Shown here one piece after another: positions 5,537 through 39,241 of a stretch of 64,000 nucleotides of DNA. Position 1 is the stretch's first letter. Each line of letters begins with the position of its first letter. Below the pieces are notes generated by a model, which worked only from the letters and a program-made list of their open reading frames with translations, had not been told where the DNA came from and did no database searches. The stretch comes from an uncultured Elusimicrobia bacterium (lineage in GTDB: Bacteria > Elusimicrobiota > Elusimicrobia > UBA1565 > UBA9628): positions 3,950-67,949 of the forward strand of contig CAYHPY010000005.1 in the NCBI GenBank assembly GCA_964358485.1, read 5' to 3'. The position numbers were made by a program, and so were the translations under genes.

Positions 5537-7495
5537 TTAAAAGAACCCCTCTTTATACTGTTTGAACACCTGCGCCAGGAACAGCACCTCCGGGTGCATG
5601 TGCGCCAATTTCGGGAGGACCACCTTGACCCGGGAGCGGAATTCCCCCACCCTGTCGGCCAGCGCCCGGACGGCCGCCGCGTCGGAGGGCTTGAAGTTCT
5701 GCAGGTCCAGCACCAGCTTGTTGCGGCTCTCGGCCAGCGCCGCGCGCAGGTGCTCCCAGACCTCCTTGGCGTGGGCCGCCGAGGCCGCGCCCTCCAGGCG
5801 CATCCAGACCTGGCGGTGGGCGTGCTGGAGCTCCACCTGGACCCTGAGGCCCGGCTTGGAGGCCCGGTGCGGCAAAGTCTCCCAGATGCGGAAATTGCCC
5901 CAGCCCTCTTCCGGCAGGCGGTAGGAGGTCCGGGTCAGGCTGGGGTGCTGGAACAGGTTCAAGCGCCCCGCAACGCCGGTCCAGGCGGCCGCGGCCAGGG
6001 CCGCTCCCGAGGCCAGGCGTTCCTTCAGGGTCGGCGCGCCCAATTCGCCGTAGGCCCGCTCCTCCAGGCTCTCGATGCGCTCGCGCACGGCGGCGTTGAC
6101 GGCCAGGAGTTTTCCCGCCAGGAAGGTCGGGTAGGAGTTTCTCACCTCGCGGGCGAAGCGTTCGGCCTTTTTGCGGAGCATCGGGTTGCCGCTGTCGCGC
6201 AGGGTCCGGTAGCCGGACAGCCAACGGTCGATGACCCGGTACACGCTCGGGCCCAGCCTGCGGTAATCCTCCTCGAAGCACCGGCGCTGGAGCTCCTCGA
6301 TCTCGGCACCGCTCAAGCGCGGGTGCTTGATCATCGCCCGAAACCCGTCCCCCCGCCGGTACAGGTACTCCGGGTCGTTCTTGACTTCGTCGATGAGGCG
6401 TCCCTCCCGCGCCACCCGCGCGTGAAAGGGCGTCCCGGGGATGGGATTGTAGATCAAAAACTGCGAGAGGCAGGGCTCCAGGGAGAGCAGGCCGTCGAGC
6501 TCTTCGGCTACGATTTCCTTGTCCTGGTAATCGAAGCCCACGATCATGGAGGCCAGGACCGTGATCCCGTGCCTTCTCAGTTCGGGGAAGACCTCGGACG
6601 CCGGACGGCCCGCCTGCTTGGCAAACCCTGAGCGGGTCCCTTCATAGCCGATCCAAAGCCCGTCGATGCCCATTTCCAGGAGCTCCGTGACCTTGTACTG
6701 GTTGAGGGCCCGCAGGCTGGCGAAGGCGAAGATGGAGAGCGCCTTGCCGGCCTTGAGGACGCTGTCCCGGAATTCCATGGCCCGGCGCTTGTTCAGGAGG
6801 AAATCCTCGTCCAGGATGGTGAAGGACATGTCGGGGTCCAGGTCCAGGTAGCGCTCGATGACCGCGTGGATGTCCCCTCCGGTCGGGAGGAGCTTGATGT
6901 GCTTGCGCTCGAAAAAATGCGAGGTGCAGCAGAAATCGCAGCCGTTGGGGCATCCCAGCCCCGCGAAGATCATCCCGGTATTGGAGACCGGCAAGGAGAA
7001 GAGCTTCAGTTTGCTGACGATCAACGGGTGGTTGTACGGCATCTCCTTGGGGGTCTCCCCCAAAAGGCGGCGCATGAAGGTCACGCCTTCCTCCCGGCAG
7101 ATGAAGTCCCCGTAGGGTTTGAGGACTTCCTCGCCCAGGATCGTCCCGTAGCCGCCCAGGACGATCTTGGATTTCGGGGCGTACTTGCGGATCAGGGCGA
7201 CCGTTTCCTTCATCCGGTGGAAGACCGGGAGCAGGAAGGAGACCCCGACATAGTCGTAGCCCTTCTTGAGCTCCCGGATGAGCTCCCGCTTGCTGGGATA
7301 CTGGAGGACGACGGCGGGGGCGTCCAGGTTCTGTGCGACGTATTCCAGGGAAAAGTGGAGATGCAGCGCCCGGGGGCTGAAAAGGCCCTGGGCCCGGGTG
7401 ACCTGCCGGAAAAGCAACTCGTAACCGACGGTGGGACCGTCCCCGTGCTCGGGGCCGAGGGGGCGGCAAACGCTGGTGAACAGGACTTTGGGCAT
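5537..7495 (-). CDS. Cobalamin-binding radical SAM protein with a C-terminal STAS-like extension
   Basis: GLGCPNGCDFC, ILDEDF, GLWIGYEG, SMIVGFD. The C-terminus (VWMRLEG...LVLDLQNFK...A...L) resembles STAS. Confidence 0.85.
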   Translation of the reverse strand: MPKVLFTSVCRPLGPEHGDGPTVGYELLFRQVTRAQGLFSPRALHLHFSLEYVAQNLDAPAVVLQYPSKRELIRELKKGYDYVGVSFLLPVFHRMKETVALIRKYAPKSKIVLGGYGTILGEEVLKPYGDFICREEGVTFMRRLLGETPKEMPYNHPLIVSKLKLFSLPVSNTGMIFAGLGCPNGCDFCCTSHFFERKHIKLLPTGGDIHAVIERYLDLDPDMSFTILDEDFLLNKRRAMEFRDSVLKAGKALSIFAFASLRALNQYKVTELLEMGIDGLWIGYEGTRSGFAKQAGRPASEVFPELRRHGITVLASMIVGFDYQDKEIVAEELDGLLSLEPCLSQFLIYNPIPGTPFHARVAREGRLIDEVKNDPEYLYRRGDGFRAMIKHPRLSGAEIEELQRRCFEEDYRRLGPSVYRVIDRWLSGYRTLRDSGNPMLRKKAERFAREVRNSYPTFLAGKLLAVNAAVRERIESLEERAYGELGAPTLKERLASGAALAAAAWTGVAGRLNLFQHPSLTRTSYRLPEEGWGNFRIWETLPHRASKPGLRVQVELQHAHRQVWMRLEGAASAAHAKEVWEHLRAALAESRNKLVLDLQNFKPSDAAAVRALADRVGEFRSRVKVVLPKLAHMHPEVLFLAQVFKQYKEGFF

Positions 7496-9126: not shown

Positions 9127-10452
9127 TTAAAATTCGCTGAAATCCCGCATCTTATCCAAATTGCGGGCGACCTTCATCTGCAGGAGATTGACGTTCCAGG
9201 ACGCGAAATGGGATTCCCGGTACGGGATCGGCAGGCGGCGGACCGTGGACCGGAGGGAGTAGAATTCCCGGCGGATTTTGGCGACCCTTTCCAGCAGGCC
9301 CTGAGGAGTGAAGCGCAGGGGCTTGAAATGGCAGGACAGGCCGGGCCAGCGCTCCAGGTTTTCCTCGTCGATGATCCGCCCCTCGGCCTTCATCTTTTCA
9401 TAGACCCCGGTTCCCCGCAGGGGCACGAGGATGTTGAAATAGGCGGCCGGGACCTTGTGCTCTTCCAAAAATTCCATGGTCGCCGGAAAGACGCTCTCAT
9501 CGTCGGTGTCGGTCCCGAACACGAAGTTGAGCGAGAAGCTGATATCCCGGCGGCGCAGGTTGCCGATCATATGGACGAACTCGTGGGCCTTGTTGAAATT
9601 CTTGTTCATTCCGCGCAGGGTCCGTTGGTCGATGCTTTCGGCCCCCGTGTTGACGTGGAGCAGGCCCGAGCGCCGGGCCAGATCCATGAATTTCTCATCC
9701 ATGCAGAAATGGGCCGAGAACAAGGTGGACCAGCGGACCTTCAGGGGGATGAGGGCCTCCATCAGCTCCATGGCCTTGGTCTTGTCCCCGGAGAACTGGC
9801 TGGCCGCGAAAAAGATGTGACGGCTGCCGCAGCGCTTGACGTCGTCCACAATCTCCTCGGTCGGGCGCACCCGCCAGCCGTAATCTCCGGACAGGCGGCG
9901 TTCCGCGCAGAAATCGCAAGTGAAGGGACAGCCCCGGGAGTGGAGGATGACGTAGGGCCGGTAGAAGACGTATTTCTTCGGGTCCAGGAGGTCCCAGCGC
10001 GGGGCGGGCATGCCGCGCAGGTCCGCCGGACGGTCCCGGCGGTAGAACTTCTGGAGGCGCCCGGCGGCCGCGTCCTCCAGCATCCGGGGGAAAATCTCCT
10101 CGCCCTCACCGACGCAGATGCCGTCGGCGTGAGGGGCGGCTTCCTCATGGAAGAAGGTCATGTGGGGGCCGCCGAGCAGGACCTTGACCCCCCGCCGGCG
10201 GAACTCATCGGCGATCTCGTAGGCCCGAAGGGAGGTCACCGTGCGCACCGCGATGCCCACGACGTCGGCCCGCGTGTTGTAGTCGACCCTCTCCGTCGCG
10301 TCGTCGATGACCGACACCTCCCAATGCTTGGGCGCCAAGGCGGCCATATAGGGCAGAACGGCCCCGACCAGTTTCCGCTTGGGGAACCGATACGGGACTC
10401 GGACATCGCGGCGGCTGTAGCCCGTCGCTTGGATCAGGAGGAGTTTAGGCAT
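9127..10452 (-). CDS. Cobalamin-binding radical SAM protein
   Basis: B12 domain (LLGGPH...DGICVGEGE), SRGCPFTCDFC, TGAES, FVFG. Confidence 0.9.
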   Translation of the reverse strand: MPKLLLIQATGYSRRDVRVPYRFPKRKLVGAVLPYMAALAPKHWEVSVIDDATERVDYNTRADVVGIAVRTVTSLRAYEIADEFRRRGVKVLLGGPHMTFFHEEAAPHADGICVGEGEEIFPRMLEDAAAGRLQKFYRRDRPADLRGMPAPRWDLLDPKKYVFYRPYVILHSRGCPFTCDFCAERRLSGDYGWRVRPTEEIVDDVKRCGSRHIFFAASQFSGDKTKAMELMEALIPLKVRWSTLFSAHFCMDEKFMDLARRSGLLHVNTGAESIDQRTLRGMNKNFNKAHEFVHMIGNLRRRDISFSLNFVFGTDTDDESVFPATMEFLEEHKVPAAYFNILVPLRGTGVYEKMKAEGRIIDEENLERWPGLSCHFKPLRFTPQGLLERVAKIRREFYSLRSTVRRLPIPYRESHFASWNVNLLQMKVARNLDKMRDFSEF

Positions 10453-12811: not shown

Positions 12812-13407
12812 GCCCACAGGTCCGGCCGTTTGGTGCAAACGGCGTCCACGCGGCCCCTCAGTCGCCGGAAATCCCGGATGCGCGACGGAGGATAGCCTTC
12901 CACTTCCGGAGACACCAGGCAAATCTTGAAATGCCGGGAGGCGCGTTCCACCAAGGAAAGCGCGGGCGGCCGGCCCGAGAAGCAATCCAGCCAGAGCCAC
13001 TCCGCCTTTCCTTTGAGGCGCGACGCCGACTCCAGGGATTCGTACTCGGACACCCGCAAGGCCACGCGCCGCTCTCCTTGCCGCAAAGCGAGACGAACCG
13101 TGGAGGGAAAGCTCAGATCGAGGAAGAAAAAACGCTCGATCCCACGCTCCCGCAGAAGCTTCAAGGCGGCCCCGTCCAGGCCGTCCTCCTTCGGATTGAG
13201 AATCAAAGTTCCCGTGCGTCCTTGCCGGGCCCAGAGGGCCAAATAGGCCTCCAACGAAGGCCCCGAAGCTTGAGGGTCGTGGGCTAAAAACACTCGACCT
13301 CCGCGGGAGCGGAGGTCGACTTCGGCTCCAAGTTCCGTCCCCAAATTTTTCAATTCGTTAAGCGTATTGACCCGGTGGGCTACAATTTCCGAGGGATCGT
13401 TTCTCAT
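12808..13407 (-). CDS. Glycerophosphodiester phosphodiesterase-like (PLC-like TIM barrel) protein
   Basis: IVAHRVN, GAEVDLR, FLAHD, LNPKE, WLWLD, VSPE, AVCTK. Confidence 0.75.
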   Translation of the reverse strand: MRNDPSEIVAHRVNTLNELKNLGTELGAEVDLRSRGGRVFLAHDPQASGPSLEAYLALWARQGRTGTLILNPKEDGLDGAALKLLRERGIERFFFLDLSFPSTVRLALRQGERRVALRVSEYESLESASRLKGKAEWLWLDCFSGRPPALSLVERASRHFKICLVSPEVEGYPPSRIRDFRRLRGRVDAVCTKRPDLWA

Positions 13408-15632
13408 TTGACTACTTCGACCGAAACCGTTTTTGATCGGGCTTCGAACCCGTTCTTAGCATAGACCGCTCGCAGGCGGTAAATTCCCAGCCCGTCAAAT
13501 TTAAACTTCGTTTCAAATTCCCGAAACGGATTTTCGGGAACGGATCGGGCCGTCAACAGATATTCCCCCGGCGCCAAGGACAAGTCGAGCGAGTCTTCGG
13601 CCTTGGCGCCGGATTTGGACCTGCACCGCAAGGCCTTTTCATTTCCCCCGGGCGCGGTAACGAAGAACTTGAAACCGTGAAATCCGCAGTTGAACCCCGT
13701 TTTCACAAAAGAGGGAGCCCGCTCCTTGAAAGCCACGGGCGAGTCCCCCGTATTCTGGAACTCCAGACGGTACCGCAAAGGTTCTCCGGCCATGATTTTG
13801 GTCTTTTCGATCAGAAACAAAAGCGTCAGCCTCGGCGCTCCCGACTCGGGAGTCCACCCCGGTCGCGGCTGAAGAACGAGAGCCTTTCGATCTTGAACTT
13901 CCGTCAGACTCGGGGGATCGAAAGGCTCGCCCTCAACCACGGTCAGCCGCCGGTCCGCCGGCACCGCGCCCAAAGACTGCTCGCGCCCGGAGGGCCAGCG
14001 GATGCGGACCTCTTCGACGCGCTCCCAGCGCCCCAGCCCGAAATGGCAGGCCAGGCTGTTCATGGACAAATAGCTTCCCCCCGCCGTGACCAGGCAGGAC
14101 TGGGTCCGCCCGTCGCCGGTCCGCACCGCCACCTTCGCCCCCACCGCATCCCGGTTGGATTTTCGCCCGCTCAAGCGGACTTGGAGCCAGTGATTGGAGT
14201 TTTGGACGGCGTTGCGCAAGAGCAGGGCCGGACCTCCGTTGGCGTTGACCGCGATGTCCAGCCGCCCGTCCCGGTCGTAATCGGCGACCGCCGCCCCGCG
14301 GGCGTTGATCGAAGCCTGGAAGGCGGGGCCCGCCGCCGCCGTGACCTCGGTGAAGGTCCCGTCCCCGTCGTTGCGGAACAACTGCATCCTTTGAGGAACC
14401 AAGAGCTCCGGAGCCTCGCGTTGTTCAAAGGTGGAGCCGTTGACGATCAGGATGTCCTGTCGGCCGTCGTTGTCGTAGTCCAGAAACGCCGTCCCCCAGC
14501 CGACGAAGTCGAGCGTCGTCTCGCCCAGCCCCGCCGGGGTGTTGCCGTCGGAGAAATGCAGGCGCTTGCCCGGGGCGTCCTTGGGGCGCTCGCGTAGGAG
14601 GTTGATGTAGAGGCTTTTTTCATGGGCGATCCATTGGGTCACGATCATGTCCCAATCCCCGTCCCCGTCATAATCCCCCAAGCCCGCCCCCATCGAACTT
14701 TTGACGTCCCCCAGCCAGGCCTCGTAGGTGGCGTCCGTGAAGCGCCCCCCGCCGGCGTTTCGAAACAGCGCGTCGGGCGTCACATCGTCGGCCACGTAGA
14801 TATCCGGGCGCCAGTCCTCATCCAGGTCGGCGAAGAGGCACTGCATGCCTTTGCGATCGTCCGCCGCCACCCCGGCCGAGCGGGCGGCCTCCGCGAAGCG
14901 GCGCCCGCCCAGATTCCGGTAAAGGCTGTTTCCGGCGGAGGGAAAGGCGAAGGGGCTCAAGGTGACCGGGATGCTGAAGCCCCCCCGCTCCACGGCGGAG
15001 GTCCGGGGCGGGTAATTCCGGTCGAACGCCACATAGCGCGGAACGTACAGATCGATCCGGCCGTCGCCGTCATAATCGGCGGCGCAGGCCCCGGCCGACC
15101 AACGGGCATCGGCCAGGCCCGCCTCGCGCGTGATCTCGGTGAATTTCCAATTCCCGTCGTTGCGGTACAGGAGGCTTCCTTCCCAACCCGTGACCAGCAG
15201 ATCCGGTCGGCCGTCATTGGCGAAGTCGGCGAATAAACAGCCCATGCCCGAACCCCGGCCGCCCACCCCGGCCTTCTGCGTGACGTCTTCAAAAGTCCCG
15301 TCGCCCCTATTCCGGTAGAGGGCGTTTTGCGGGTTTGAACCGGGCTCGGCTTTCTTGGCATCCAAGGGCCGCGCGTTGACCAGATACAGATCCTCGCGGC
15401 CGTCCCCGTCCGCGTCCCCCCAACAGGCCCCCGACCCCATGTCCTCCGGGAGCAGGGACGAGCGCCGCCCTTGGAAATGGCGAAAGGAGATTCCGGCCGG
15501 TGTCGCGGCGTCCTCAAAAAACCCCGGCGGCGCGGCCGCCCCCGAGGCGGGCCCCGAGGCGCGCCGGGACAAAAGCGCCCCCCCGGCCAGCAGGGCCGCC
15601 AAGGCCCCCGCCCACGCCCCGGCCTTGCCCAT
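13404..15632 (-). CDS. CRTAC1/ASPIC-UnbV family FG-GAP beta-propeller protein with an extra C-terminal Ig-like domain
   Basis: Repeated DxDxDGxxD loops (DADGDGRED, DYDGDGRID, DYDNDGRQD, DYDRDGRLD); UnbV segment GGSYLS...HFGLG...IRWPSG; N-terminal anchor. Start is ATG 15632 or TTG 15638. Confidence 0.9.
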   Translation of the reverse strand: MGKAGAWAGALAALLAGGALLSRRASGPASGAAAPPGFFEDAATPAGISFRHFQGRRSSLLPEDMGSGACWGDADGDGREDLYLVNARPLDAKKAEPGSNPQNALYRNRGDGTFEDVTQKAGVGGRGSGMGCLFADFANDGRPDLLVTGWEGSLLYRNDGNWKFTEITREAGLADARWSAGACAADYDGDGRIDLYVPRYVAFDRNYPPRTSAVERGGFSIPVTLSPFAFPSAGNSLYRNLGGRRFAEAARSAGVAADDRKGMQCLFADLDEDWRPDIYVADDVTPDALFRNAGGGRFTDATYEAWLGDVKSSMGAGLGDYDGDGDWDMIVTQWIAHEKSLYINLLRERPKDAPGKRLHFSDGNTPAGLGETTLDFVGWGTAFLDYDNDGRQDILIVNGSTFEQREAPELLVPQRMQLFRNDGDGTFTEVTAAAGPAFQASINARGAAVADYDRDGRLDIAVNANGGPALLLRNAVQNSNHWLQVRLSGRKSNRDAVGAKVAVRTGDGRTQSCLVTAGGSYLSMNSLACHFGLGRWERVEEVRIRWPSGREQSLGAVPADRRLTVVEGEPFDPPSLTEVQDRKALVLQPRPGWTPESGAPRLTLLFLIEKTKIMAGEPLRYRLEFQNTGDSPVAFKERAPSFVKTGFNCGFHGFKFFVTAPGGNEKALRCRSKSGAKAEDSLDLSLAPGEYLLTARSVPENPFREFETKFKFDGLGIYRLRAVYAKNGFEARSKTVSVEVVK

Positions 15633-15634
15633 GG

Positions 15635-17584
15635 TCAAAGGCCGACCACCGCCCGGTCCTCGGCCAGATCCGTGACGGGAAAAGTCGTCTTTTTATCGCC
15701 GGTGACAAAATCCGCGATGAATTGGTTGAACTTGCGGTAACGCAGGCGGGCGTTGATCGTCAGCGGCCCACGGACGCCTCTCGGGAGGACCGCCTCGTAG
15801 GAGGCGGCGTCGGAATAGCCGACGAAGATGGCCCGCTTGGTCTTTTGCCCCACCATGTCCCAAAGGTTGTGGTGCTTGATGTCGCTTCCCCCTTTGTCCA
15901 CGCCCAAGGCCCGGAAAAAGAACGCTCCCTTGTCCACGTAATTGCGGGCGTCCAACAGGCCCGACTGGAACACCAGCTTGCCCCGGGCGTCGGAGACGGT
16001 GACCTCCAGCCAGGTTTCGATGATGTCGAGCGGCCCCGTGGGCACGCCGTGCCCGGCTTTGTTGTTGGTCACGAGGACCTGCCACTTCAAACGGCCGCCC
16101 GCCGCCTTCGGCCCGAAGATTCGCACCGGAACCGCCGCCCCCTGGGCCCACCGGTCCCGAATCTCGGGGATTTCCGTTCTTCCCCTCAACCAATCCTCGG
16201 TCTGCCGAACCTGTTCCGCGTCCCCGTTGAGCCATGGGACCGCCTGATTGGCGCCGATGAAACGGTGGGAGCGATGCTTGCCGTCGGCGCCGCGCGCGGG
16301 GTCGCCCCGCGCCGGATCGGTGGAATCGACCAGCCGCATGTGGCAGTCCTTGCAAGCCAGGGATTTTTCGGGATGGCCGTCCACGTTGTACCGGCCTTTG
16401 CGCCAATCGTCGTATTGGTTTTGAAGCTGGACCCAGCCGAAATGGTTGATCTCCTTATCGATGAACTGCTTGTGGCAGGTGGCGCACAACTCGGCCGTCC
16501 CGTGAAAGCTCTTGGAAAAATCCTCCCGATGCGCCCGGGGCAGGGACCGGAGCAGAAAATAATTCAAATTTTTATCCAACACGCCCGAATAGCCCTCGAA
16601 CAGATAGTCCCGGGGCGGTTCGAGGACATAATTTCCGTTGCCGTCGGTCTTTCCGTTGAGGCCCCGAATCGAATGGCAGGCCGCGCAGGAGACGCCTTCC
16701 TCGCTGCCGGGCGCGTCCAGGCTCCGGCCGGGATTGATGTCGCCCGCAAGCAAAGAGACGGGATCGTGGCAGGCGGCGCAATAGCGGGTGGCTTCCCGGC
16801 CGTTTTCTTTCGTCATCTTCGTCTCGACGGCCCGGTAGACCAAATCGGTGGACGACCAACGGTGGGCGTTGCTTTTCCACTCCTTGTAGATTTGTTCGTG
16901 GCAATCTCCGCAAGCCTCCGATCCCATCAGGCGCCTTCGGTCCAGCACCTTCATCCCGTCCGTCGCGGCGTTGCTCGGGGCAAAAGGGTTCTTTCCGTAC
17001 TTGAAGCTGTAATCCGGGGGAGGCTCGTCCTTGTAGACGACGGGACGGTAAACGGCCGAGAGACCCGCCGTCGCCAGGACCAGGGCCGCGCACGCCCCCC
17101 CGCTCCAAGCCGCCAAGCGCCCCGCCGCCCGGGGCCAAGGAGCCGCGTCCTTGAGCCTGGAGATCGACCGGAACAGGTGATAGCCGATCAGCGCGGCGGA
17201 GGCGTAACTGCTCCACAAGTGGAGGGCCGCGGCCGAGGGCGGCAGACGCTCGCCGAAAGCGGAGCCCCACGCGGCCCAGATTCCCGTCACCGCCGAAAGC
17301 GCCGAGGCCGCCAAGGCCGAGTAGCCGATCCACACCATCACGCGTTCCGGCGAATTGTGGGCCCGGCGGGCGTGGGTCCAGCCGAAGGCCGCGAAGGCGG
17401 CGAAAAGAACCAGGCCCCCAGCGGTGTGAAGCAGGACCGAGAATTGGAGCCACGCGCTCAAACCCGGCCAAAAAGTCACCGCCGCGCCGGACGCCAATTC
17501 GAAGGTGTACAACCCGACCACGATTCCCAAAAGGGGCGCCGCCAACCGTTCCGCCTTGAGCCCGAGTTCTTCGTCACCAGACAT
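15635..17584 (-). CDS. Membrane-anchored multiheme c-type cytochrome (c554/c552-like) with an N-terminal His-bearing TM domain
   Basis: Five CxxCH motifs: CGDCH, CAACH, CAACH, CATCH, CKDCH. Conserved HxFxG and AGHxxPTG segments. N-terminal TM helices. Start re-placed at ATG 17584. Confidence 0.88.
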   Translation of the reverse strand: MSGDEELGLKAERLAAPLLGIVVGLYTFELASGAAVTFWPGLSAWLQFSVLLHTAGGLVLFAAFAAFGWTHARRAHNSPERVMVWIGYSALAASALSAVTGIWAAWGSAFGERLPPSAAALHLWSSYASAALIGYHLFRSISRLKDAAPWPRAAGRLAAWSGGACAALVLATAGLSAVYRPVVYKDEPPPDYSFKYGKNPFAPSNAATDGMKVLDRRRLMGSEACGDCHEQIYKEWKSNAHRWSSTDLVYRAVETKMTKENGREATRYCAACHDPVSLLAGDINPGRSLDAPGSEEGVSCAACHSIRGLNGKTDGNGNYVLEPPRDYLFEGYSGVLDKNLNYFLLRSLPRAHREDFSKSFHGTAELCATCHKQFIDKEINHFGWVQLQNQYDDWRKGRYNVDGHPEKSLACKDCHMRLVDSTDPARGDPARGADGKHRSHRFIGANQAVPWLNGDAEQVRQTEDWLRGRTEIPEIRDRWAQGAAVPVRIFGPKAAGGRLKWQVLVTNNKAGHGVPTGPLDIIETWLEVTVSDARGKLVFQSGLLDARNYVDKGAFFFRALGVDKGGSDIKHHNLWDMVGQKTKRAIFVGYSDAASYEAVLPRGVRGPLTINARLRYRKFNQFIADFVTGDKKTTFPVTDLAEDRAVVGL

Positions 17585-18503
17585 GCGCTTGAACCTCCGA
17601 AAGCACGATCGTTTCCCCGGCCTCGGCGCCCACCCGATAGGCGTGCGTGCCGTCCGGCCAGTCCGCCTTGATCGAATCCGCCCGGACGCGCTCCCCGAGT
17701 TCGAAACGGACGGGATTAGCACCGGCCTCTTTCCTCAAGATCAGCTTCCCCGCGAAAACGGTTACGACCGCGTTCCGAGCGGGCTCTTTGGAGGCCGCCC
17801 GGACCTCGAGCCAATGCCCCCCGGCCCGTTCGGTGTCCCCCGCGGATGGAAACGGCTCCAAAGGCTCGTCATAACGGAACGGGCGCCTGGGGCCGCCTTC
17901 GCGGCCCTCCTGCTCGGCAAATCGCCCCAGGAGGGCTTCTCCTTCCGTTTTCCGCCCGGCGGCAACCAGAGAACGCCCCAGACGGTAAAGGGCGGGGCCG
18001 TGCCGGGGGTTGAGTTCCAGGACTTTGCGCAGCTGCTTGCGCGCCGCGGGCTCCCGGCCCCCGGCTAAAAGGGCCTCCGAGAGCCGAAACCAAATGTCCG
18101 CCTCCCCGGGTTCACGCTCCGCCGCTTCCTGGAAGGCTTTGACGGCGTCCTCCGGCCGCCCGGCGCCCAAACGGGAGCGGCCGAGAAGGTAGCGCGGGCG
18201 GGGATTTTTCGGGTCCGCGGCCAGGGCCCCGATCAGGACCCTTTCGGCCTCGGCGGGCCGCCGCCGGATCAGTCGAAGCAGGCCCAGATTGGAAAGAACC
18301 GCCGGATGATTCGGCCGCGACGCCAGGAGCTCGGAGAACTCCCGTTCGGCGGTTTCCATCATCCCCAACCCCCAATGGGCCACGGCCCGGTGGTGCAGGC
18401 CGAGTTCCGCGTCCGAAAGGTCGGAGAAGTCCCCCGCGGTCGCCGGAACCGCCAAAATCAGGGCCGCCGCCGCGGCCCTAAAGAGCGCGTCCGGAGATTT
18501 CAT
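17574..18503 (-). CDS. Exported TPR protein with a C-terminal UnbV-like segment
   Basis: Signal peptide; TPR repeats (NLGLL, YLLGRS, YRLGRS); C-terminal HWLEVR...FELG...ADWPDG. Confidence 0.82.
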   Translation of the reverse strand: MKSPDALFRAAAAALILAVPATAGDFSDLSDAELGLHHRAVAHWGLGMMETAEREFSELLASRPNHPAVLSNLGLLRLIRRRPAEAERVLIGALAADPKNPRPRYLLGRSRLGAGRPEDAVKAFQEAAEREPGEADIWFRLSEALLAGGREPAARKQLRKVLELNPRHGPALYRLGRSLVAAGRKTEGEALLGRFAEQEGREGGPRRPFRYDEPLEPFPSAGDTERAGGHWLEVRAASKEPARNAVVTVFAGKLILRKEAGANPVRFELGERVRADSIKADWPDGTHAYRVGAEAGETIVLSEVQAHVW

Positions 18504-20124
18504 GAGCTTGGGCGGCGGCCGCCCCGCCGCCCGCCCGAACCGCCTGAACGACCTGTTCGGCCTCCTGGATCGACGCGAAACCCCAGGCCATGTTTTTCAA
18601 GGACCCGAGGTGCAGTTCCTCGGAGTGCGCCGCGCAGGCGTCCAGGACCGCGGTCATCCGGATTCCCCGGTCAAAGCCGCTACGCACGGTGGATTCGACG
18701 CACAAATTGGTCGCCACGCCGGCGACCGCCAAATCCTTGACCCCATCCTCGGCCAGGGCCCGGGCCAGCCGGGGGTTGGAGAAGGCGCAGTACCGGTTTT
18801 TCTCGAACACCCGCCGCGCCTCCGGCTTCAAGACTTCCGAAAGGCGGGCCTCGGGAGAACCGCTCCGGCACGCGGTTTTCCACCAATCCGCCATGAGACC
18901 GCCCTCGGCGGGATCATCATGCGCGTAAACGCTGAAATAGACCGGACGGCCCGCCGCCCGAAAGGCCGAAATCAGACGGACCACATTTCCCAGGATGGCC
19001 CGCGCCGAGGGGAGATACGCCGGGCTTTGGGGATCGAGAAACAACTCCTGCATGTCGATTACAATAAGTCCGGCTTTGCCCGGACGAAGAGGAAAGGTCC
19101 GTCTTCGAAATTTTTCAAGTTCCCCCTTCCACGCCGTCGCGCGAGCCGAAAGAGTATCGGCCCGGACATAACTCAGGGCCTCCTTCAGCCGGTTCTTCGC
19201 CATCCGGGCCGCCCGCTCCTTCAAGGCGCCCGACCAAAGCTGGCCGCAGGATGTTTCCGCCTGGATCTCCTCGGGCAGGCTGGGGCTCAGGAGCGTCTCG
19301 AAACCCCTTCGCCGCAGGTCGCGCGCGTTTTCCAGGACCCGGTCCGGCGCCTCCACCCAGACATGGGTGGTCCCGCCGCGGTCGGCCGTTGCGGTCGGAT
19401 TGATCGGGGTGATTTTTACGAAGAATTTCTCCGGGGAGAACAGGGAGGAGAGTTTTTCCCCGTCGATCGTTTCTCCCACCCCGAGCGCGAAATTGAGGGT
19501 CAGCTTCCGGTCCCCCGGCCGGAAAAAAGCCTCGCCATAAGCCGCGATCTCCTCCAAGGACCACTTTTTGATGGGCACGATCTCCCGGCGCTTTTTCTCA
19601 TCCAGCGAGTGGAGCGAGAATTGGAGTTGAAAGCGCCCCCCGGCGTAGAGTTCGTTCTTAAGCTCGATGAGTTCCCGGAAGAAAGGCTCGATGGCGGGAC
19701 TTTTCGGAGCCACCGTGGAAAGGCTGGGCAGAATGCCGCGCGACGGGAACTCCCGGGCCAAAAGCCGCAGAGCCTCCAGGACGGCGGGGTTGAGGGAGGG
19801 CTCCCCCATGCGCGCGAAATGGATCTTCACCTTCGGATGCCGCGCGATGTCCAGGAAAGGATTCTCCCAAACCACGCGCCGGACCTGGCTCAACATTTCC
19901 TCGGCGCTCAAATTTCCCTGGAAGGCCATCGCTCCGGCGTCGCACATGCGACATCCCACCGGGCAGCCGAATTGGGTGGAGATCATCATGACCCACTTCC
20001 TGGAAACGGGAACGCCCGGCTCCCGGGTGTCGACGAATTCGGCCAGCCGGTCCGGGGAGGGTCCCAATTGGGCCAGGTAGAGGGTGGCTAAGCCGGGGAA
20101 ATGCCTCTGATCGACGATGATCAT
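18478..20124 (-). CDS. RlmN/Cfr-like radical SAM domain fused to an isochorismatase-family cysteine hydrolase
   Basis: STQFGCPVGCRMC, RMGEP, QFSLHS and SCGQL, then IVIDMQ, KNRYCAF and VATNLCVEST. Start at ATG 20124 (ATGA overlap). Confidence 0.85.
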   Translation of the reverse strand: MIIVDQRHFPGLATLYLAQLGPSPDRLAEFVDTREPGVPVSRKWVMMISTQFGCPVGCRMCDAGAMAFQGNLSAEEMLSQVRRVVWENPFLDIARHPKVKIHFARMGEPSLNPAVLEALRLLAREFPSRGILPSLSTVAPKSPAIEPFFRELIELKNELYAGGRFQLQFSLHSLDEKKRREIVPIKKWSLEEIAAYGEAFFRPGDRKLTLNFALGVGETIDGEKLSSLFSPEKFFVKITPINPTATADRGGTTHVWVEAPDRVLENARDLRRRGFETLLSPSLPEEIQAETSCGQLWSGALKERAARMAKNRLKEALSYVRADTLSARATAWKGELEKFRRRTFPLRPGKAGLIVIDMQELFLDPQSPAYLPSARAILGNVVRLISAFRAAGRPVYFSVYAHDDPAEGGLMADWWKTACRSGSPEARLSEVLKPEARRVFEKNRYCAFSNPRLARALAEDGVKDLAVAGVATNLCVESTVRSGFDRGIRMTAVLDACAAHSEELHLGSLKNMAWGFASIQEAEQVVQAVRAGGGAAAAQAHEISGRAL

Positions 20125-21011
20125 CCGTTCACCAAAAATTTCTCGCACTCCATCCCCGCCCTGATCCCGTCGGCGGCGGCGGCGGAGACCTGGTGGAAGC
20201 TTTCGGGACGGATGTCGCCCGCCGAGAAAAAACCCGGAGGCGGGTTCCGCCAGCCGGCCGCGACGCGCTCCGGCGCCTTGCCGATCAAAACGAACAGGGC
20301 CGCGACCTCCAGATCCGCCGCCTCCCCCGTTTTCAAATGAAGCGTCTTTACGCGCTCAAGCCCCGCGCGCCCCCCCGGCCCGATGGCCCGGCTCACGACC
20401 GTGTCGGTCAAAAGCCGGACGTTCGGACTTGCCGCGAGGCGGTCTTGCAGGAGCCGGATGGCCCTCAGGCGGTCGCCCCGGTGGATCAGGAAGACCCGGT
20501 CGGCGAACCGGGACAACAGCAAGGCCTGGTGGGCCGCGGTATCCCCTCCACCGACGACCGCCACCCGCTTTCCGGCAAAACGCGGCGCTCGCTCGAAGGC
20601 GCAATGGTAAATCCCGGCCCCCATAAACTTGCCTTCCCCGGGCAGGCCCAAGGTGCGGAAATTGGCTCCGGCGCAGGAAATGACGGCCCGGGCCGCGATG
20701 GAGCCGGCGTCCGTGTCCACCCGAAAGCCCCCGCCCGTTCGGGCGATTTTTTCCGCCCGGGCCCGCTCGGTTTTCAGCCGCCAGCGCCTGCCTTGGAGCT
20801 GGAACCGCCGCATCAGCTCCTTGCCGGAGATTCCGTCCGGAAAGCCGGGGTAATTTTCGATCCAGGCGATGCGGCGCGCCTGCCCGCCCACGGCCCCCTT
20901 TTCCAGGAGGACCGTATTCCACCCCGCCCGGGCCAAATACATCCCGGCGGACAAACCCGCGGGACCTCCCCCGATAATCGCCACGTCCAAGACGCCCTTC
21001 AAATGGCCCAA
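20121..21011 (-). CDS. Thioredoxin reductase-like FAD/NAD(P) oxidoreductase lacking the canonical CxxC
   Basis: IIGGGPAGL, GGQ...IENYPGF, VVGGGDTA, FSAGD. The redox site reads CAFE. Start (TTG) is uncertain. Confidence 0.85.
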   Translation of the reverse strand: MGHLKGVLDVAIIGGGPAGLSAGMYLARAGWNTVLLEKGAVGGQARRIAWIENYPGFPDGISGKELMRRFQLQGRRWRLKTERARAEKIARTGGGFRVDTDAGSIAARAVISCAGANFRTLGLPGEGKFMGAGIYHCAFERAPRFAGKRVAVVGGGDTAAHQALLLSRFADRVFLIHRGDRLRAIRLLQDRLAASPNVRLLTDTVVSRAIGPGGRAGLERVKTLHLKTGEAADLEVAALFVLIGKAPERVAAGWRNPPPGFFSAGDIRPESFHQVSAAAADGIRAGMECEKFLVNG

Positions 21012-21209: not shown

Positions 21210-22559
21210 ATGAGAAAAAACCGGCGCGTCCTGCTTTTGGCGATGAGCGGATTGCGCATCCAGGACCCGCGCCTGCGGGAGGCCGGGCTCACCTTGCCGG
21301 GCTTCGTGGAACGAGGGAAAGTCATCGCCAGCCTCCCGAGCCTGTCCTTGCTGACGTTGGCCGCCTTGTGTCCTCCGGACTGGGAGCCGGTCTACCGGGA
21401 ATATGACGAGCTTCCCGAAAACGCCGCCGACTCGATCGCCGCCGAGGGCTTCGACTTGGTCGCCGTCTCCAGCCTGTCGCCGCGAATCCTGGAAACTTTC
21501 GCCCTGGCCGACGCGCTTCGGGCGCGGGGCACGGCCGTGGCGCTGGGCGGGCTTCATGTGTCGGCCCTGCCCGAGGAAGCTTCGGCCCACGCCGACGCCC
21601 TGGTCCTGGGCGAGGGCGAAACGGTTTGGCCCGAACTGCTGGGAGACGCCGCCGCCGGGCGCCTGCGCCCCCGCTACGCGCGCCGCGCGCGCTCCCTCTG
21701 GGAAGATCCCTCCCCCCCGCCCCGCTACGACCTGCTGGAGGTCGAGCGCTACAACCGCCTGACTTTGCAATGCGCCCGGGGCTGCCCTTTGCATTGCTCC
21801 TTCTGCGGCGCCTCGCGGACCATCAGCCCGTACCGGCTCAAGCCGATCCCGCAAGTTCGGCGGGAGCTGGAGGCGCTGCTGTCCCGCTGGCCGAGGCCGT
21901 TTCTCGAACTGGCCGACGACAACACCTTCGCGAGCAAACCGTGGTCCCGGGACCTGGCGCGGCTGTTCGGGGAATACTCCCTGCGCTGGTTCACCGAAAC
22001 CGACATCTCCGCGGCCGACGATCCCCGGCTGCTCGATCTTTTGGCCCAAACCAATTGCGTCCAGCTTCTCATCGGCCTGGAATCGGCCTCCCCGGAGTCC
22101 TTGAAAGGCTTGGACAGCCGGGATTGGAAGCGCCGGCAATTCGACGGCTACCGCGAGAAAATCCGCCGCATTCAGGCCCGCGGGATCAGCGTCAACGGCT
22201 GCTTCATCCTGGGGCTGGATTCCGACGGCCCCGAGTGTTTCGAGGAAACCGCGCGTTTCGTGGAGGACAGCGGCCTGGCCGAGGTTCAGATCACGGTCCC
22301 GACCCCGTTTCCCGGAACCGGCCTATTCCGCCGGCTCGAGGACGAGGGACGGCTTCCCAAGGCCCCGTTCTGGGACCGGCTCACTTTGTTTGACCCCGTT
22401 TTCGCGCCCAAGCGAATGAGCCAAGACGAGCTTCGGGCGGGCTTTCTATCCTTGATGGGAGGGCTCTATGGCAAATCGGCGGTGGACCGCCGCCGCCGCG
22501 CCTTTCGCGCGTGTCGGCGGTCCCGGAGGCTTCATGAACGAACCCCAAGCGGCGCCTGA
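21210..22559 (+). CDS. Cobalamin-binding radical SAM protein
   Basis: LGGLHVS...VLGEGE, ARGCPLHCSFC, LADDN, IGLES, FILGLD. Confidence 0.9.
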   Translation: MRKNRRVLLLAMSGLRIQDPRLREAGLTLPGFVERGKVIASLPSLSLLTLAALCPPDWEPVYREYDELPENAADSIAAEGFDLVAVSSLSPRILETFALADALRARGTAVALGGLHVSALPEEASAHADALVLGEGETVWPELLGDAAAGRLRPRYARRARSLWEDPSPPPRYDLLEVERYNRLTLQCARGCPLHCSFCGASRTISPYRLKPIPQVRRELEALLSRWPRPFLELADDNTFASKPWSRDLARLFGEYSLRWFTETDISAADDPRLLDLLAQTNCVQLLIGLESASPESLKGLDSRDWKRRQFDGYREKIRRIQARGISVNGCFILGLDSDGPECFEETARFVEDSGLAEVQITVPTPFPGTGLFRRLEDEGRLPKAPFWDRLTLFDPVFAPKRMSQDELRAGFLSLMGGLYGKSAVDRRRRAFRACRRSRRLHERTPSGA

Positions 22560-23256
22560 GCGGCCGGGCCTGCCCTGGGACGCGATCGCGCGCGTCCTGT
22601 TCTTGCGGGCCGGGGCCGAGGAAATCCGCCTCTTCGGGAACCGGGAACTGGCGGTGGGCGCGGTTTCCTGCTGGATCGTGGGGCTCGGACGCTGGTGGGA
22701 CGATCCGAAAGCCGAGCTTCTCCAAAAACTGGGGTTGGGCTCCGTGGTCTACCCTTTCGCGTTGGGCGCGTTGATTTGGCTTTTATTTTGGCCGTGGCGC
22801 CTGACCCATTGGCGCTACAAGGCCCTGGTCGCCTACATATCCCTCTGCGCCGCGCCCGGCCTTCTGTACGCGGTTCCGGTGGAGATGTTCCTTTCGGGGG
22901 ACGCCGCGCTTTCCTACAACGCCGTCGCCCTTTCGATCGTCGCCCTTTGGCGCGTGGTTCTGATCATGCGCTACCTGCTCCTGGCCCCGCCGCTCGGCTT
23001 CGGCCTGACGATGGTCGCGACGCTGATCCCAGTCGGCGCGATCGCCATCGGATTGACCATGTTCAACGTCTCGACCGGCGTGATCGAGGGAATGGGAGGC
23101 TTCCGCGGCAGTCCCAAGGACGCCTTCGCGGCCCAGGTCGGGATTATGGCCAGCATCCTTCTGTTTTGGCCGCTGGTCGGGGCGGTCCTGGTCCACCTCG
23201 GCTATACCATCAAGGTCTGGTTCTGGCCCAAGCCGCCGGATCAAAGCCCTTTGTAG
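22534..23256 (+). CDS. Multi-pass membrane protein of unknown function
   Basis: About six hydrophobic segments. Start re-placed at ATG 22534, overlapping the upstream gene. Confidence 0.7.
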   Translation: MNEPQAAPERPGLPWDAIARVLFLRAGAEEIRLFGNRELAVGAVSCWIVGLGRWWDDPKAELLQKLGLGSVVYPFALGALIWLLFWPWRLTHWRYKALVAYISLCAAPGLLYAVPVEMFLSGDAALSYNAVALSIVALWRVVLIMRYLLLAPPLGFGLTMVATLIPVGAIAIGLTMFNVSTGVIEGMGGFRGSPKDAFAAQVGIMASILLFWPLVGAVLVHLGYTIKVWFWPKPPDQSPL

Positions 23257-24236
23257 GTCGTCAGGGTGCGGATGTACTGCTGGCGCTCGAAGGCGCTGGG
23301 ATCGGAGCAATTGCGCTGGCTCATGCTGCCCCGCAGCTGCGTGACGGAGGCGTATTCCCGCTCCTCAAGCCACCGGACGAGCTCCCCTTCCATGACCTTG
23401 AGATGGTCGATGCCGAATTTATAGAGGACCGAACAGAGCATGGTGACGCTGGCCCCCGCCATGAGAAGCTTGAGGGCGTCGGTGGCGGCGTGGACCCCGC
23501 TGGTGGCGGCCAAATCGGCCTTGATCCGCCCGGAAAGCACCGCCGTCCAATGAAGCGGCAGGCGCAGGGCCTGGGGCGTGCTCAAAAGCAGGTTGGGCCG
23601 CACCTCCAGGGCGTCGAGGTCGAAATCCGGCTGGTAAAAGCGGTTGAAAAGGACCAGGGCCCCGGCCCCCGCATCGTCGAGCTGTTTGGCCATGTGCGCC
23701 ATGTTGCTGAAAAAGGGGCTGACCTTGACGGCCACCGGAATGCTCACCGCCGCGCGCACGGCCCGCAGGATCTCGACATGGGTCCGCTCCACCTCGGCAC
23801 CGTCGACGGAGGGGTCGGTGGGAATGTAATAAATGTTGAGCTCCAGCGCGTCGGCCCCGGCCGTTTGCATGTCCTTGGCGTGCCCGGTCCAACCGCCCAG
23901 CGAGGTTCCGTTGAGGCTGGCGATGATCGGGATTTTCGCCGCTTCCTTGGCCTTGCGGATGTGGTTGAGATAGGCCTCCGGCCCCCAATGGAAGGTTTCC
24001 ACCGCGGGAAAGAAGCTCTGCGCCTCGGCGTAGGCGTTGGTGTGCTCGGTCAGGCGCGTCAAAAGCTCGTCGCGGTCGCGCGTCAACTGTTCCTCGAACA
24101 ACGAACTCAGGACCACGGCGGAGGCCCCGGCGTCCTCCATCTTCCTGATTCCGTCGAGCGTTTCCGACAGGGGGCTGGCCGAGCAGACCAGCGGCGTGCG
24201 CAATTTCATTCCGAGATAGGAAGTGCTCAGGTCCAT
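23241..24236 (-). CDS. Dihydroorotate dehydrogenase-like FMN protein (PFOR-associated type)
   Basis: GAVV..SLFEEQ, IPIIASLNG, AVKVSPF, LVLFNRF, ATSGVH. ELNIYY is found where true class 1 DHODH has NxSCPN. Confidence 0.85.
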   Translation of the reverse strand: MDLSTSYLGMKLRTPLVCSASPLSETLDGIRKMEDAGASAVVLSSLFEEQLTRDRDELLTRLTEHTNAYAEAQSFFPAVETFHWGPEAYLNHIRKAKEAAKIPIIASLNGTSLGGWTGHAKDMQTAGADALELNIYYIPTDPSVDGAEVERTHVEILRAVRAAVSIPVAVKVSPFFSNMAHMAKQLDDAGAGALVLFNRFYQPDFDLDALEVRPNLLLSTPQALRLPLHWTAVLSGRIKADLAATSGVHAATDALKLLMAGASVTMLCSVLYKFGIDHLKVMEGELVRWLEEREYASVTQLRGSMSQRNCSDPSAFERQQYIRTLTTYKGL

Positions 24237-24246
24237 GGCCGGTTGC

Positions 24247-27783
<3,537 letters not shown>

Positions 27784-27862
27784 GGTAGTGGGAGTCCCTT
27801 TGCTTTGCAACGGTATGGCCAAACCCCGGCCGCTAAGAAATTTCTCAGTCGTGAAGGCGGGA

Positions 27863-27880
27863 AATGATGGCGCCATCATT
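27863..27880. promoter_or_regulatory. 18-bp perfect palindrome in the AT-rich PFOR upstream region; candidate operator
   Basis: AATGATGGCGCCATCATT, 80 nt upstream of the PFOR start, next to A/T tracts. Confidence 0.5.
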
Positions 27881-28048
27881 CTCAACAAAAAAAACTTTAA
27901 AAACATGGATAATCACCAAACAGGGTCGATTTTTTTTTGACAGGAAATATTCCCAAGGGACCGGCATGGGCCCCGGGTCCTTTTCCTGCGGCGTTCTGGG
28001 TCCTTGGTCCCTCCTGCGCCGTCCCTCCTTGGAGTACAATAGGAAACC

Positions 28049-39093: not shown

Positions 39094-39241
39094 AAGTCCT
39101 CCGCGCCAGCTCCAAGCCCCGCCGCCCGGGTCCCGCCGCGCGCAGCGCCCAATGGCGCAGGAAATACGCCGCGAGCAGCAAAGCCGAGCAAGGCAGGGCC
39201 GCGCGCCCGGCGAAGGCGGCGATCAAACGCTGGACGCGCAT
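39080..39241 (-). CDS. Possible small membrane protein (53 aa)
   Basis: Fills the gap between two same-strand genes, overlapping both by a few codons; has a hydrophobic core. Confidence 0.35.
   Translation of the reverse strand: MRVQRLIAAFAGRAALPCSALLLAAYFLRHWALRAAGPGRRGLELARRTYADL

Follow-up and report, generated by a model that had tools for sequence, protein, structure and literature searches.

An RlmN-fold radical SAM enzyme lacking the resolving cysteine belongs to a conserved module with a CxxC-less flavoprotein and an isochorismatase-fold hydrolase

RlmN and Cfr, which methylate C2 or C8 of A2503 in 23S rRNA or of A37 in tRNA, are, to our knowledge, the only class A radical SAM methyl synthases characterised so far, and Cfr is an antibiotic-resistance enzyme of clinical importance. 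The mechanism of RlmN needs two cysteines, the roles of both being established, and this two-cysteine mechanism is regarded as a defining feature of class A: RlmN frees its product by means of Cys118 and ends the reaction with a disulfide. The methyl-carrier cysteine of RlmN, C355, has been termed essential (10.1101/2025.09.18.677109), and the reference list of PMC5062987 includes McCusker et al. (2012), 'Covalent intermediate ... trapped by mutagenesis'. We herein analyse an RlmN-like gene from an uncultured Elusimicrobia bacterium, located in a window of 64,000 nucleotides (the whole stretch of DNA that was analysed), which the original prediction had described as a radical SAM enzyme without the resolving cysteine, fused to a cysteine hydrolase. 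The gene represents the form taken in Elusimicrobia by a conserved module of an RlmN-fold radical SAM enzyme, a CxxC-less flavoprotein and an Asp-Lys-Cys hydrolase; the two-part picture of the original prediction overlooked the third component, the flavoprotein.

The fusion gene encodes a protein of 548 aa, from ATG 20124 to a stop codon at 18478-18480 of the minus strand (Table 1), and its residues are numbered here from that ATG. The longest open reading frame opens at GTG 20148 (556 aa), but all homologues begin instead at ATG 20124, which also overlaps the upstream stop codon, and we take it as the start. The domains follow one another in the order radical SAM core, helical linker and isochorismatase-fold cysteine hydrolase (codon positions checked), and AlphaFold2 gave a confident two-domain model of the protein (pLDDT 95, pTM 0.89). 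In some of the homologues, the linker between the two domains is reduced or missing in the alignment. Every sequence string quoted in the original prediction was found in the fusion protein.

Table 1. Coordinates of the fusion gene, its domains and motifs, and the upstream flavoprotein gene within the window
Feature	Position	Strand	Evidence
RlmN-like radical SAM::hydrolase fusion gene	18478..20124	minus	ORF, homologue alignment, ATGA overlap, domain searches, AlphaFold2
Radical SAM core, RlmN/Cfr fold, without the RlmN N-terminal helical domain	19234..20124 (aa 1-297)	minus	TIGR00048, PDB matches, Foldseek
Met47 at the RlmN Cys118 position, 7 residues before the first cluster Cys	19984..19986	minus	phmmer alignment to 3rf9
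CX3CX2C motif (C54, C58, C61), radical SAM [4Fe-4S] ligands	19942..19965	minus	invariant in 115/115 homologues
Cys293 in TSCGQLW, equivalent of the RlmN Cys355 methyl carrier	19246..19248	minus	aligned to RlmN 'aaCGQL'
Linker, ~48 residues, two long predicted helices (299-316, 322-339)	19090..19233	minus	AlphaFold2 model
Isochorismatase-fold cysteine hydrolase domain (aa 346-530)	18535..19089	minus	PF00857, triad conservation, Foldseek
Thioredoxin-reductase-like FAD/NAD(P)H flavoprotein, 296 aa	20121..21011	minus	TIGR01292, PDB TrxR matches, motifs

The likeness of the radical SAM core to RlmN is weak but real. Against TIGR00048 the core scores 61 bits (E 1e-16; cut-off 290), with profile positions 100-353 only being covered, and against the Cfr models 51-52 bits (cut-offs 468-550). 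RlmN and Cfr structures of the PDB match it at E 1e-9 to 2e-11 (phmmer), and Foldseek aligned the model with TM 0.68 to 6fz6 and 0.60-0.63 to E. coli RlmN; the PDB titles among the Foldseek matches include 'C118A RlmN ... cross-linked tRNA'. As had been predicted, the MGEP and SLH motifs and the C-terminal SCGQL are all retained, the cysteine of the latter being the C355 equivalent by alignment. Profile coverage and the alignment to the genome's own RlmN show that the N-terminal helical (HhH-like) RNA-binding domain of RlmN is missing from the core, and the fusion protein is ~50 residues shorter than that RlmN before the cluster motif, while the beta-strand segment preceding the RlmN core is retained (as seen in the model and in the same alignment). 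Moreover, the same genome encodes a separate, canonical RlmN (331 bits) with both cysteines (Cys at -7) and the N-terminal domain, hence the fusion gene is not the housekeeping A2503 methylase. On sequence grounds, then, we agree with the original prediction that this is probably not a standard rRNA A2503 methylase: it has neither the C118-type cysteine nor the N-terminal domain, it lies far under the family cut-offs, and a canonical RlmN is present elsewhere in the genome.

An RlmN paralogue that C-methylates a new target in RNA (or DNA), with resolution of the adduct given over to partners in trans, would agree with RlmN and Cfr being the closest characterised relatives in both sequence and fold, with the retained beta-strand segment, and with the JGI label of the homologues, 23S rRNA (adenine2503-C2)-methyltransferase. 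We consider such a nucleic acid methylase quite improbable, given that the N-terminal helical domain is missing, that a canonical RlmN is already at hand, and that the module is patchily spread, in ~6% of the phylum genomes sampled. The pI of the radical SAM cores is not consistently basic (5.2 to 11.7, median 7.2, as against 9.7 for the genome's own RlmN), a scatter too wide to decide on nucleic-acid binding from charge. Nor are we aware of any case of base C-methylation in which an amidohydrolase takes part.

The phmmer alignment to E. coli RlmN (3rf9), in which 'vmmistqfgcpvgcrmc' pairs with 'tlcvssqvgcaleckfc' and 'etscgql' with 'aacgql', places Met47 at the Cys118 position, exactly where the original prediction had put a methionine. 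This Met is found in 114 of 115 fused homologues (50-80% identity, all of them from Elusimicrobia wherever the source names the organism), hence the substitution is neither unique to this read nor a read artefact, and the fusion is likewise kept among these homologues. In the wider family, however, 83 loci from many phyla carry Ile (40), Met (28), Leu (6), Thr, Gln or others at this position, and never Cys, so that Met has no special role; the Cys-to-Met change is thus conserved within the fused clade but is one of several forms in which the position occurs. The C-terminal cysteine behaves in the opposite way: Cys293 is invariant in 115/115 fused homologues, a Cys-Gly motif occupies its place in 79 of the 83 loci (CGQ 75, CGM 3, CGE 1), and remoter, QueT-fused proteins also have the cysteine, as CGK or CGN.

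These patterns also bear on another explanation, namely that we are dealing with a decayed or inactive remnant of RlmN, or with an artefact of assembly or gene calling. The gene does lack a residue which RlmN cannot do without, and its scores on curated models are weak, yet none of the 115 homologues departs from the cluster cysteines, GEP, SxH or the C-terminal Cys, numerous independent contigs of several sources bear the same fusion, the family extends to >545 species, the model is confident (pLDDT 95), and no frameshifts or signs of relaxed selection were seen in the homologues. Hence, we regard a remnant or artefact as hardly credible, and as effectively refuted by conservation.

The gene directly upstream encodes the flavoprotein, and its stop codon overlaps the start of the fusion gene as ATGA; the fusion gene is translationally coupled to it. 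The flavoprotein scores 234 bits against TIGR01292, under the TrxB cut-off of 343, and matches TrxR structures of the PDB at E 1e-54 (4zn0). It has CAFE in place of CxxC, whereas the genome's own TrxB has CAPC, and among 71 members of the flavoprotein family the first Cys of the motif is kept in 2 and the second in none. The nucleotide-binding motifs are well kept: each of the three Gly of GxGxxG is present in 64-67 of 67 aligned rows, GxG(D/E)xA in 69-71 of 71, Arg178 in 68/71 and GD in 70-71 of 71.

The flavoprotein is also the most tightly linked member of the module. Among the 59 loci with full flanks, its gene adjoins the radical SAM gene on the same strand in 55 (93%), the hydrolase lies beside the radical SAM enzyme or is joined to it in 49, and both partners are so placed in 47, in the gene orders I-T-R (30), T-R-I (15) and R-I-T (2). 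Natural TrxR-like::radical SAM fusions exist as well (P0142, P0147), and the hydrolase fusion is one lineage's form of the three-component module. Relatives are encoded by >545 GTDB species, and the module is spread over hundreds of anaerobic bacteria and archaea; the spread is patchy, with 12 of 201 genomes sampled from the phylum (~6%) carrying it. All-against-all ORF clustering of the 83 loci revealed no further conserved neighbours beyond the three components, and no transporter, regulator or other gene travelling with the module was found in these loci; synteny with other radical SAM genes was seen as an exception, almost confined to Elusimicrobia loci. A riboswitch was detected neither in the window nor in any of 11 diverse loci, PADLOC gave no meaningful matches to anti-phage defence systems, and our literature searches found no paper describing the three-component module. 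Public labels of the homologues are inconsistent, ranging between 'isochorismatase family protein' and '23S rRNA (adenine2503-C2)-methyltransferase', the latter of which is probably wrong.

The prediction that an isochorismatase-family domain with Asp/Lys/Cys motifs follows in frame proved right: the hydrolase domain matches PF00857 with 141 bits (E 4.9e-41; cut-off 27), and its triad is intact, with Asp357 present in 115/115, Lys442 in 114/115 and Cys475 in 115/115 fused homologues. The triad is likewise found in 60-61 of 61 cassette hydrolases, in all phyla sampled, and an M-x-x-W-W motif is specific to the module. Foldseek aligned the domain with 3irv (TM 0.84, rmsd 1.7), and no NCBIfam model of known function matched the hydrolase domain above its cut-off.

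Could another cysteine stand in for the resolving one? The radical SAM domain offers none, as its only four cysteines are the three cluster ligands and C293. We considered the single Cys of the flavoprotein, in its CAFE motif, which is kept in just 2/71 family members, C427 of the hydrolase, which is specific to Elusimicrobia, and the Cys adjoining the hydrolase nucleophile, which is absent in Elusimicrobia; none of these was retained as a candidate. Besides the hydrolase nucleophile itself, no universally conserved second Cys was found in any of the three proteins.

The original prediction had offered three options, i.e., a different resolution route, a stable adduct, or action on a small molecule that the hydrolase then processes. 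Given the flavoprotein gene directly upstream and the conserved module, the different resolution route is the most concrete of these, and no evidence was found for a stable, dead-end adduct. We tentatively favour, as possible rather than probable, a reading of the module as a methyl synthase of the class A type with a small-molecule substrate, where the electrons that RlmN draws from its second Cys, Cys118, would come from the flavoprotein. One SAM would methylate Cys293, as in RlmN/Cfr; a second SAM would yield the 5'-deoxyadenosyl radical, which would turn the Cys293 S-methyl group into a methylene radical, and this would attach to an sp2 carbon of the substrate. The flavoprotein would then draw on NAD(P)H to deliver two electrons or, alternatively, a hydride, releasing the methylated product from the Cys-CH2-substrate adduct, and would probably prime the cluster too. 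ThyX and TrmFO, in which FADH2 reduces an exocyclic methylene, provide a model for this release step. The substrate would be likelier a small amide- or enol-ether-bearing metabolite than RNA, and the hydrolase would either produce this substrate or use up the product; a small-molecule substrate is plausible. We infer the methylation of Cys293, the methyl transfer and the role of the flavoprotein from homology and gene linkage. With more doubt, we propose a split class A radical SAM methyl synthase, in which an NAD(P)H-dependent, disulfide-less flavoprotein of the TrxR fold might substitute for the resolving Cys of RlmN by delivering a hydride or two electrons.

Other roles can be envisaged for each of the three components. 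Because it is also kept in the remoter QueT-fused relatives, the C-terminal Cys may serve another purpose, e.g., as a hydrogen-atom donor; the flavoprotein could simply be a dedicated cluster reductase; and since the hydrolase is absent from about one in six loci, it may be peripheral. Combined, such roles would amount to non-methylating radical chemistry in a catabolic or salvage route: the enzyme would take a hydrogen atom off a small molecule, e.g., as a lyase or isomerase or in a reductive step, Cys293 would act as hydrogen-atom donor or thiyl relay, the flavoprotein would be no more than a dedicated NAD(P)H:[4Fe-4S] reductase or would reduce an unsaturated intermediate, and the hydrolase would open an amide or enol-ether bond before or after. 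The family lies far under the RlmN/Cfr cut-offs, its hydrolase fold is nearest to isochorismatases and small-molecule amidases, and its spread is patchy and accessory-like (12/201 genomes of the phylum), all of which would fit such chemistry. So would the C-terminal Cys of distant relatives that carry, as fusion partners, a QueT-type transporter domain and an MTA/SAH nucleosidase (P0197), an architecture that recalls the QueT/QueK/QueL set of C. difficile, in which QueL is a radical SAM lyase. However, a scan with this distant QueT-type group recovered no C. difficile locus, and the neighbours around the group are heterogeneous; furthermore, in the only relatives that have been characterised, the CGQ loop is the hallmark of methyl-carrier chemistry, and the 93% linkage together with the fusions suggests a stoichiometric role of the flavoprotein, because most radical SAM enzymes do without a reductase gene of their own. 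Hence, we deem non-methylating chemistry unlikely, albeit a serious contender.

The family keeps the methyl-carrier Cys, never had or has lost the resolving Cys, and nearly always comes with its own flavoprotein, so the module would mean either that class A chemistry can be completed in a second way or that the RlmN fold has been put to a new use. Should the enzyme indeed be a split methyl synthase, an RlmN-fold protein would C-methylate an sp2 carbon of a small metabolite which the attached hydrolase makes or consumes. Deprived of the flavoprotein, the enzyme may become covalently linked to its substrate, as happens with C118A RlmN, hence mass spectrometry could identify the substrate.

Among described systems, one likeness is to the queuosine salvage set of C. 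difficile, QueT/QueK/QueL, in which QueL acts as queuine lyase. It is echoed by the distant relatives in which a QueT-type transporter domain and a nucleosidase are fused to the enzyme (~31% identity to the query core, no flavoprotein or isochorismatase partners), a likeness of architecture that we treat as a lead only; it gives a hint that free nucleobase-like molecules can be substrates of RlmN-fold enzymes other than RlmN/Cfr. The hydrolase domain shares its fold with the isochorismatase-like hydrolases (PF00857; 3irv, EntB/VibB/AngB/PhzD, RutB, BiuH/TrtA, maleamate amidase) and its Asp-Lys-Cys triad with the amidase members of PF00857, and its lid, GGLMxxWW, resembles the xLLxDFWG segment of EntB-type enzymes; unlike the known members, it has a radical SAM enzyme as its fusion partner or gene neighbour, and it bears the M-x-x-W-W motif. 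With TrxB (TIGR01292) and the TrxR-type ferredoxin-NADP+ reductases, the flavoprotein has in common the two-domain TrxR architecture and the motifs for FAD (GxGxxG, GD) and NAD(P)H (GxGxxA, HRRxxxR), but it differs from TrxB in lacking the redox-active CxxC, in its shortened C-terminal part, in scoring below the TrxB cut-off, and in forming, in some organisms, a single protein with the radical SAM enzyme. Finally, the radical SAM enzyme and RlmN/Cfr (TIGR00048, TIGR04432; PDB 3rfa, 5hr7, 6fz6, 9p0p) both possess the partial TIM-barrel radical SAM fold (TM 0.60-0.68), CX3CX2C, GEP, SxH and a Cys in the C-terminal CGQ loop at the C355 place. In contrast to RlmN/Cfr, the module family lacks both a Cys at the C118 position and the N-terminal helical RNA-binding domain, is tied to a flavoprotein (55/59 loci) and usually also to a hydrolase, and is distributed as a patchy, accessory trait that coexists with a canonical RlmN in this genome.

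The fusion of an RlmN-like radical SAM core to an isochorismatase-fold hydrolase is encoded in one long open reading frame, in which the ATG at 20124 is the start in all aligned homologues and overlaps the preceding gene's stop codon as ATGA. Hence, the product has 548 residues; numbering begins at this ATG, and codon positions have been verified. Pfam places an isochorismatase domain in the C-terminal part (E 4.9e-41), whereas the N-terminal part matches Radical_SAM below threshold. Among the NCBIfam models, that for RlmN (TIGR00048) matched over profile positions 100-353 only (E 1e-16; 61 bits versus a cut-off of 290), and the Cfr models, with cut-offs at 468-550, gave about 51-52 bits. In phmmer comparisons with PDB sequences, the N-terminal part aligned to S. 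thermophilus RlmN, E. coli RlmN and Cfr (E 2e-11 to 5e-9), with 'vmmistqfgcpvgcrmc' over RlmN 'tlcvssqvgcaleckfc' and 'etscgql' over 'aacgql'; Met47 and Cys293 therefore occupy the positions of the resolving (C118) and methyl-carrier (C355) cysteines of E. coli RlmN. An AlphaFold2 model built with 115 homologues as input (pLDDT 95, pTM 0.89) consists of a first domain similar to RlmN-type structures (Foldseek: 6fz6, TM 0.68; E. coli RlmN, 0.60-0.63) and a second similar to isochorismatase-fold hydrolases (3irv, TM 0.84, rmsd 1.7; further matches VibB, AngB, PhzD, EntB, RutB and BiuH). The original prediction, i.e., a Met at the C118 position, retention of MGEP, SLH and the C-terminal Cys, and an in-frame isochorismatase-family domain with Asp, Lys and Cys motifs, was thus correct in all details.

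A search of 5.8 billion proteins yielded more than 100 full-length fused homologues (48-80% identity), and all those with a source-given organism name belong to Elusimicrobia. Their annotation is inconsistent ('isochorismatase family protein' at NCBI, '23S rRNA (adenine2503-C2)-methyltransferase' at JGI), and neither label captures the two-domain architecture or the flavoprotein partner. The Cys-to-Met change and the fusion, for which an alignment had been proposed as the check, are conserved: Met47 is kept in 114 of 115 fused homologues, as is Lys442, and the cluster cysteines C54, C58 and C61, Cys293, Asp357 and Cys475 are kept in all 115. Since the radical SAM domain contains exactly four cysteines, no other could assume the role of C118 there. 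Such conservation contradicts, and effectively excludes, gene decay or an artefact. Nor is the fusion gene the housekeeping enzyme; a canonical RlmN lies on another contig of the same genome (331 bits, over the cut-off), with the N-terminal domain, Cys at -7 ('TTCISSQVGC') and 'GACGQL'. The fused gene or a split version occurs in 12 of 201 sampled genomes of the phylum (9 of 77 genera) and was not found in the small-genome lineages among them, a patchy distribution typical of an accessory trait.

An exhaustive HMMER search queried with just the radical SAM part returned 73 clusters (50% identity) at E values under 1e-30 and 355 at values under 1e-10, the majority being stand-alone proteins of about 300-325 aa with the common signature 'EKWV.I.ST..GCPV.C..CDA ... 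IGSNCGQ'. Scanning GTDB species genomes with a sequence pattern, we confirmed at least 545 loci, in Elusimicrobia, Chloroflexota, Planctomycetota, Acidobacteriota, Aminicenantes, Zixibacteria, Thermoplasmata, Methanomassiliicoccales, Heimdallarchaeota and Lokiarchaeum, among others. The C118 position was never Cys in 83 loci (Ile 40, Met 28, Leu 6, the rest Thr, Gln, Ser, Asn or Pro), so Met is merely one hydrophobic option, and the C-terminal Cys-Gly motif was present in 79 of the 83. The family hallmark is the presence of one RlmN catalytic cysteine without its counterpart. About 50 N-terminal residues, corresponding to the helical domain of RlmN, are absent from the family as well.

The radical SAM gene is seldom alone. 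Searches by tblastn, with the product of the neighbouring gene and with the hydrolase domain, showed that in 59 loci with sufficient flanks a thioredoxin reductase (TrxR)-like gene is adjacent on the same strand in 55, an isochorismatase-type gene is adjacent or fused in 49, and both are present in 47. The order is hydrolase-flavoprotein-radical SAM in 30 loci, flavoprotein-radical SAM-hydrolase in 15 (the fused Elusimicrobia loci plus a few more) and radical SAM-hydrolase-flavoprotein in two. Given this linkage, along with natural TrxR-like::radical SAM fusions (P0142, P0147 and P0154), the radical SAM::hydrolase fusion is one lineage's form of a three-part system. The flavoprotein encoded directly upstream of the fusion gene is similar to true thioredoxin reductases (PDB 4zn0, E 1.5e-54) but falls under the TrxB cut-off (234 versus 343 bits) and has CAFE at the site of CAPC in the genome's own TrxB. 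Across 71 family members, the first Cys of CxxC is found in two and the second in none, while the FAD (GxGxxG, GD) and NAD(P)H (GxG(D/E)xA, Arg178) motifs are kept in at least 67, except for single GxGxxG glycines (64-67 of the 67 rows aligned there). This combination points to a partner that is most likely an NAD(P)H-dependent flavoprotein incapable of dithiol-disulfide reductase function. The module hydrolases of all sampled phyla share the catalytic triad and a specific M-x-x-W-W motif; an extra Cys427 (numbered from the GTG start) occurs only in Elusimicrobia.

Features of the window around the fusion gene
Feature	Coordinates	Strand	Remark
B12-binding radical SAM protein	2139..4358	+	fused to HxsC4-like radical SAM domain
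B12-binding radical SAM protein	5537..7495	-	652 aa
B12-binding radical SAM protein	9127..10452	-	
TPR protein, multihaem c-type cytochrome (695 aa), FG-GAP/ASPIC-repeat protein (744 aa)	13404..18503	-	downstream of fusion gene, same strand
Fusion gene ORF	18478..20148	-	
TrxR-like flavoprotein gene	20121..21011		
B12-binding radical SAM protein	21210..22559	+	
Pyruvate:ferredoxin oxidoreductase (1219 aa; TIGR02176, 1711 bits), adjoining dihydroorotate-dehydrogenase-like protein (PRK07565, 482 bits)	23241..27906	-	
2-kb stretch	38001..40000		top G+C of window (0.72), strong AT skew (0.20)

Radical SAM genes are unusually frequent in this neighbourhood, which encodes four B12-binding proteins of this type. 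In other Elusimicrobia loci (L004, L008, L012, L013, L019 and L020) the fused gene adjoins a gene for a B12-binding radical SAM protein of about 650 aa, whose window orthologue (59-62% identity) lies at 5537..7495; outside those loci an orthologue was seen only once, as a non-adjacent copy (L058), hence we read the adjacency as lineage synteny. The start of the TPR gene overlaps the last 26 nt of the fusion gene, and neither it nor the cytochrome and FG-GAP/ASPIC genes accompany the module in other genomes. The oxidoreductase and dehydrogenase-like genes look like ordinary anaerobe metabolism.

Comparison of loci across phyla revealed no conserved gene beyond the three components, no riboswitch was found in the window and 11 diverse loci, and PADLOC gave no defence-system signature; we therefore derive a mechanism from the module parts. 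In RlmN and Cfr, SAM methylates C355, the 5'-deoxyadenosyl radical generates a Cys-S-CH2 radical that adds to the adenine carbon, and the covalent adduct is resolved by C118 at the cost of a disulfide, which has to be reduced; mutation of C118 traps the adduct. McCusker et al. in 2012 (cited in PMC5062987) reportedly trapped a covalent intermediate by mutagenesis, and the PDB titles of 5hr7 and 5hr6 are consistent with a trapped RlmN adduct. C355 has been described as essential in RlmN (10.1101/2025.09.18.677109). The present family has the carrier but no resolver, and its close partner is a two-electron NAD(P)H flavoprotein. Our preferred reading, held tentatively, is that the flavoprotein would supply the electrons or hydride releasing the methylated product, and probably also reduce the cluster. 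To us, a small molecule seems a likelier substrate than RNA, since there is no RNA-binding domain, the radical SAM cores are not consistently basic in charge and the module contains a small-molecule-type hydrolase; a nucleic-acid (RNA or DNA) methylase with a novel target seems improbable.

A full-text literature search found no paper on the three-part module. The novelty lies in the different partner logic of this RlmN-fold enzyme, which is of real interest for radical SAM enzymologists. In the main rival to flavoprotein-assisted methylation, the radical chemistry would not be methylating: the Cys would donate a hydrogen atom and the flavoprotein would act simply as a reductase. We consider it somewhat less probable; some weight is added to it by the retention of the Cys, as CGK or CGN, in more distant relatives, including some fused to other domains. 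Stand-alone members of this distant group neighbour a Clp protease in L090, a CHAP domain protein in L092 and a DNA methylase in L155, which may be prophage or mobile-element contexts. Three others (P0197, P0207 and P0233; radical SAM core about 31% identity) carry an N-terminal QueT-type transporter domain, and P0197 also a C-terminal MTA/SAH nucleosidase. In its domain make-up, three-part P0197 brings to mind QueT/QueK/QueL, a queuosine salvage set whose radical SAM lyase, QueL, is a possible member of this clade.
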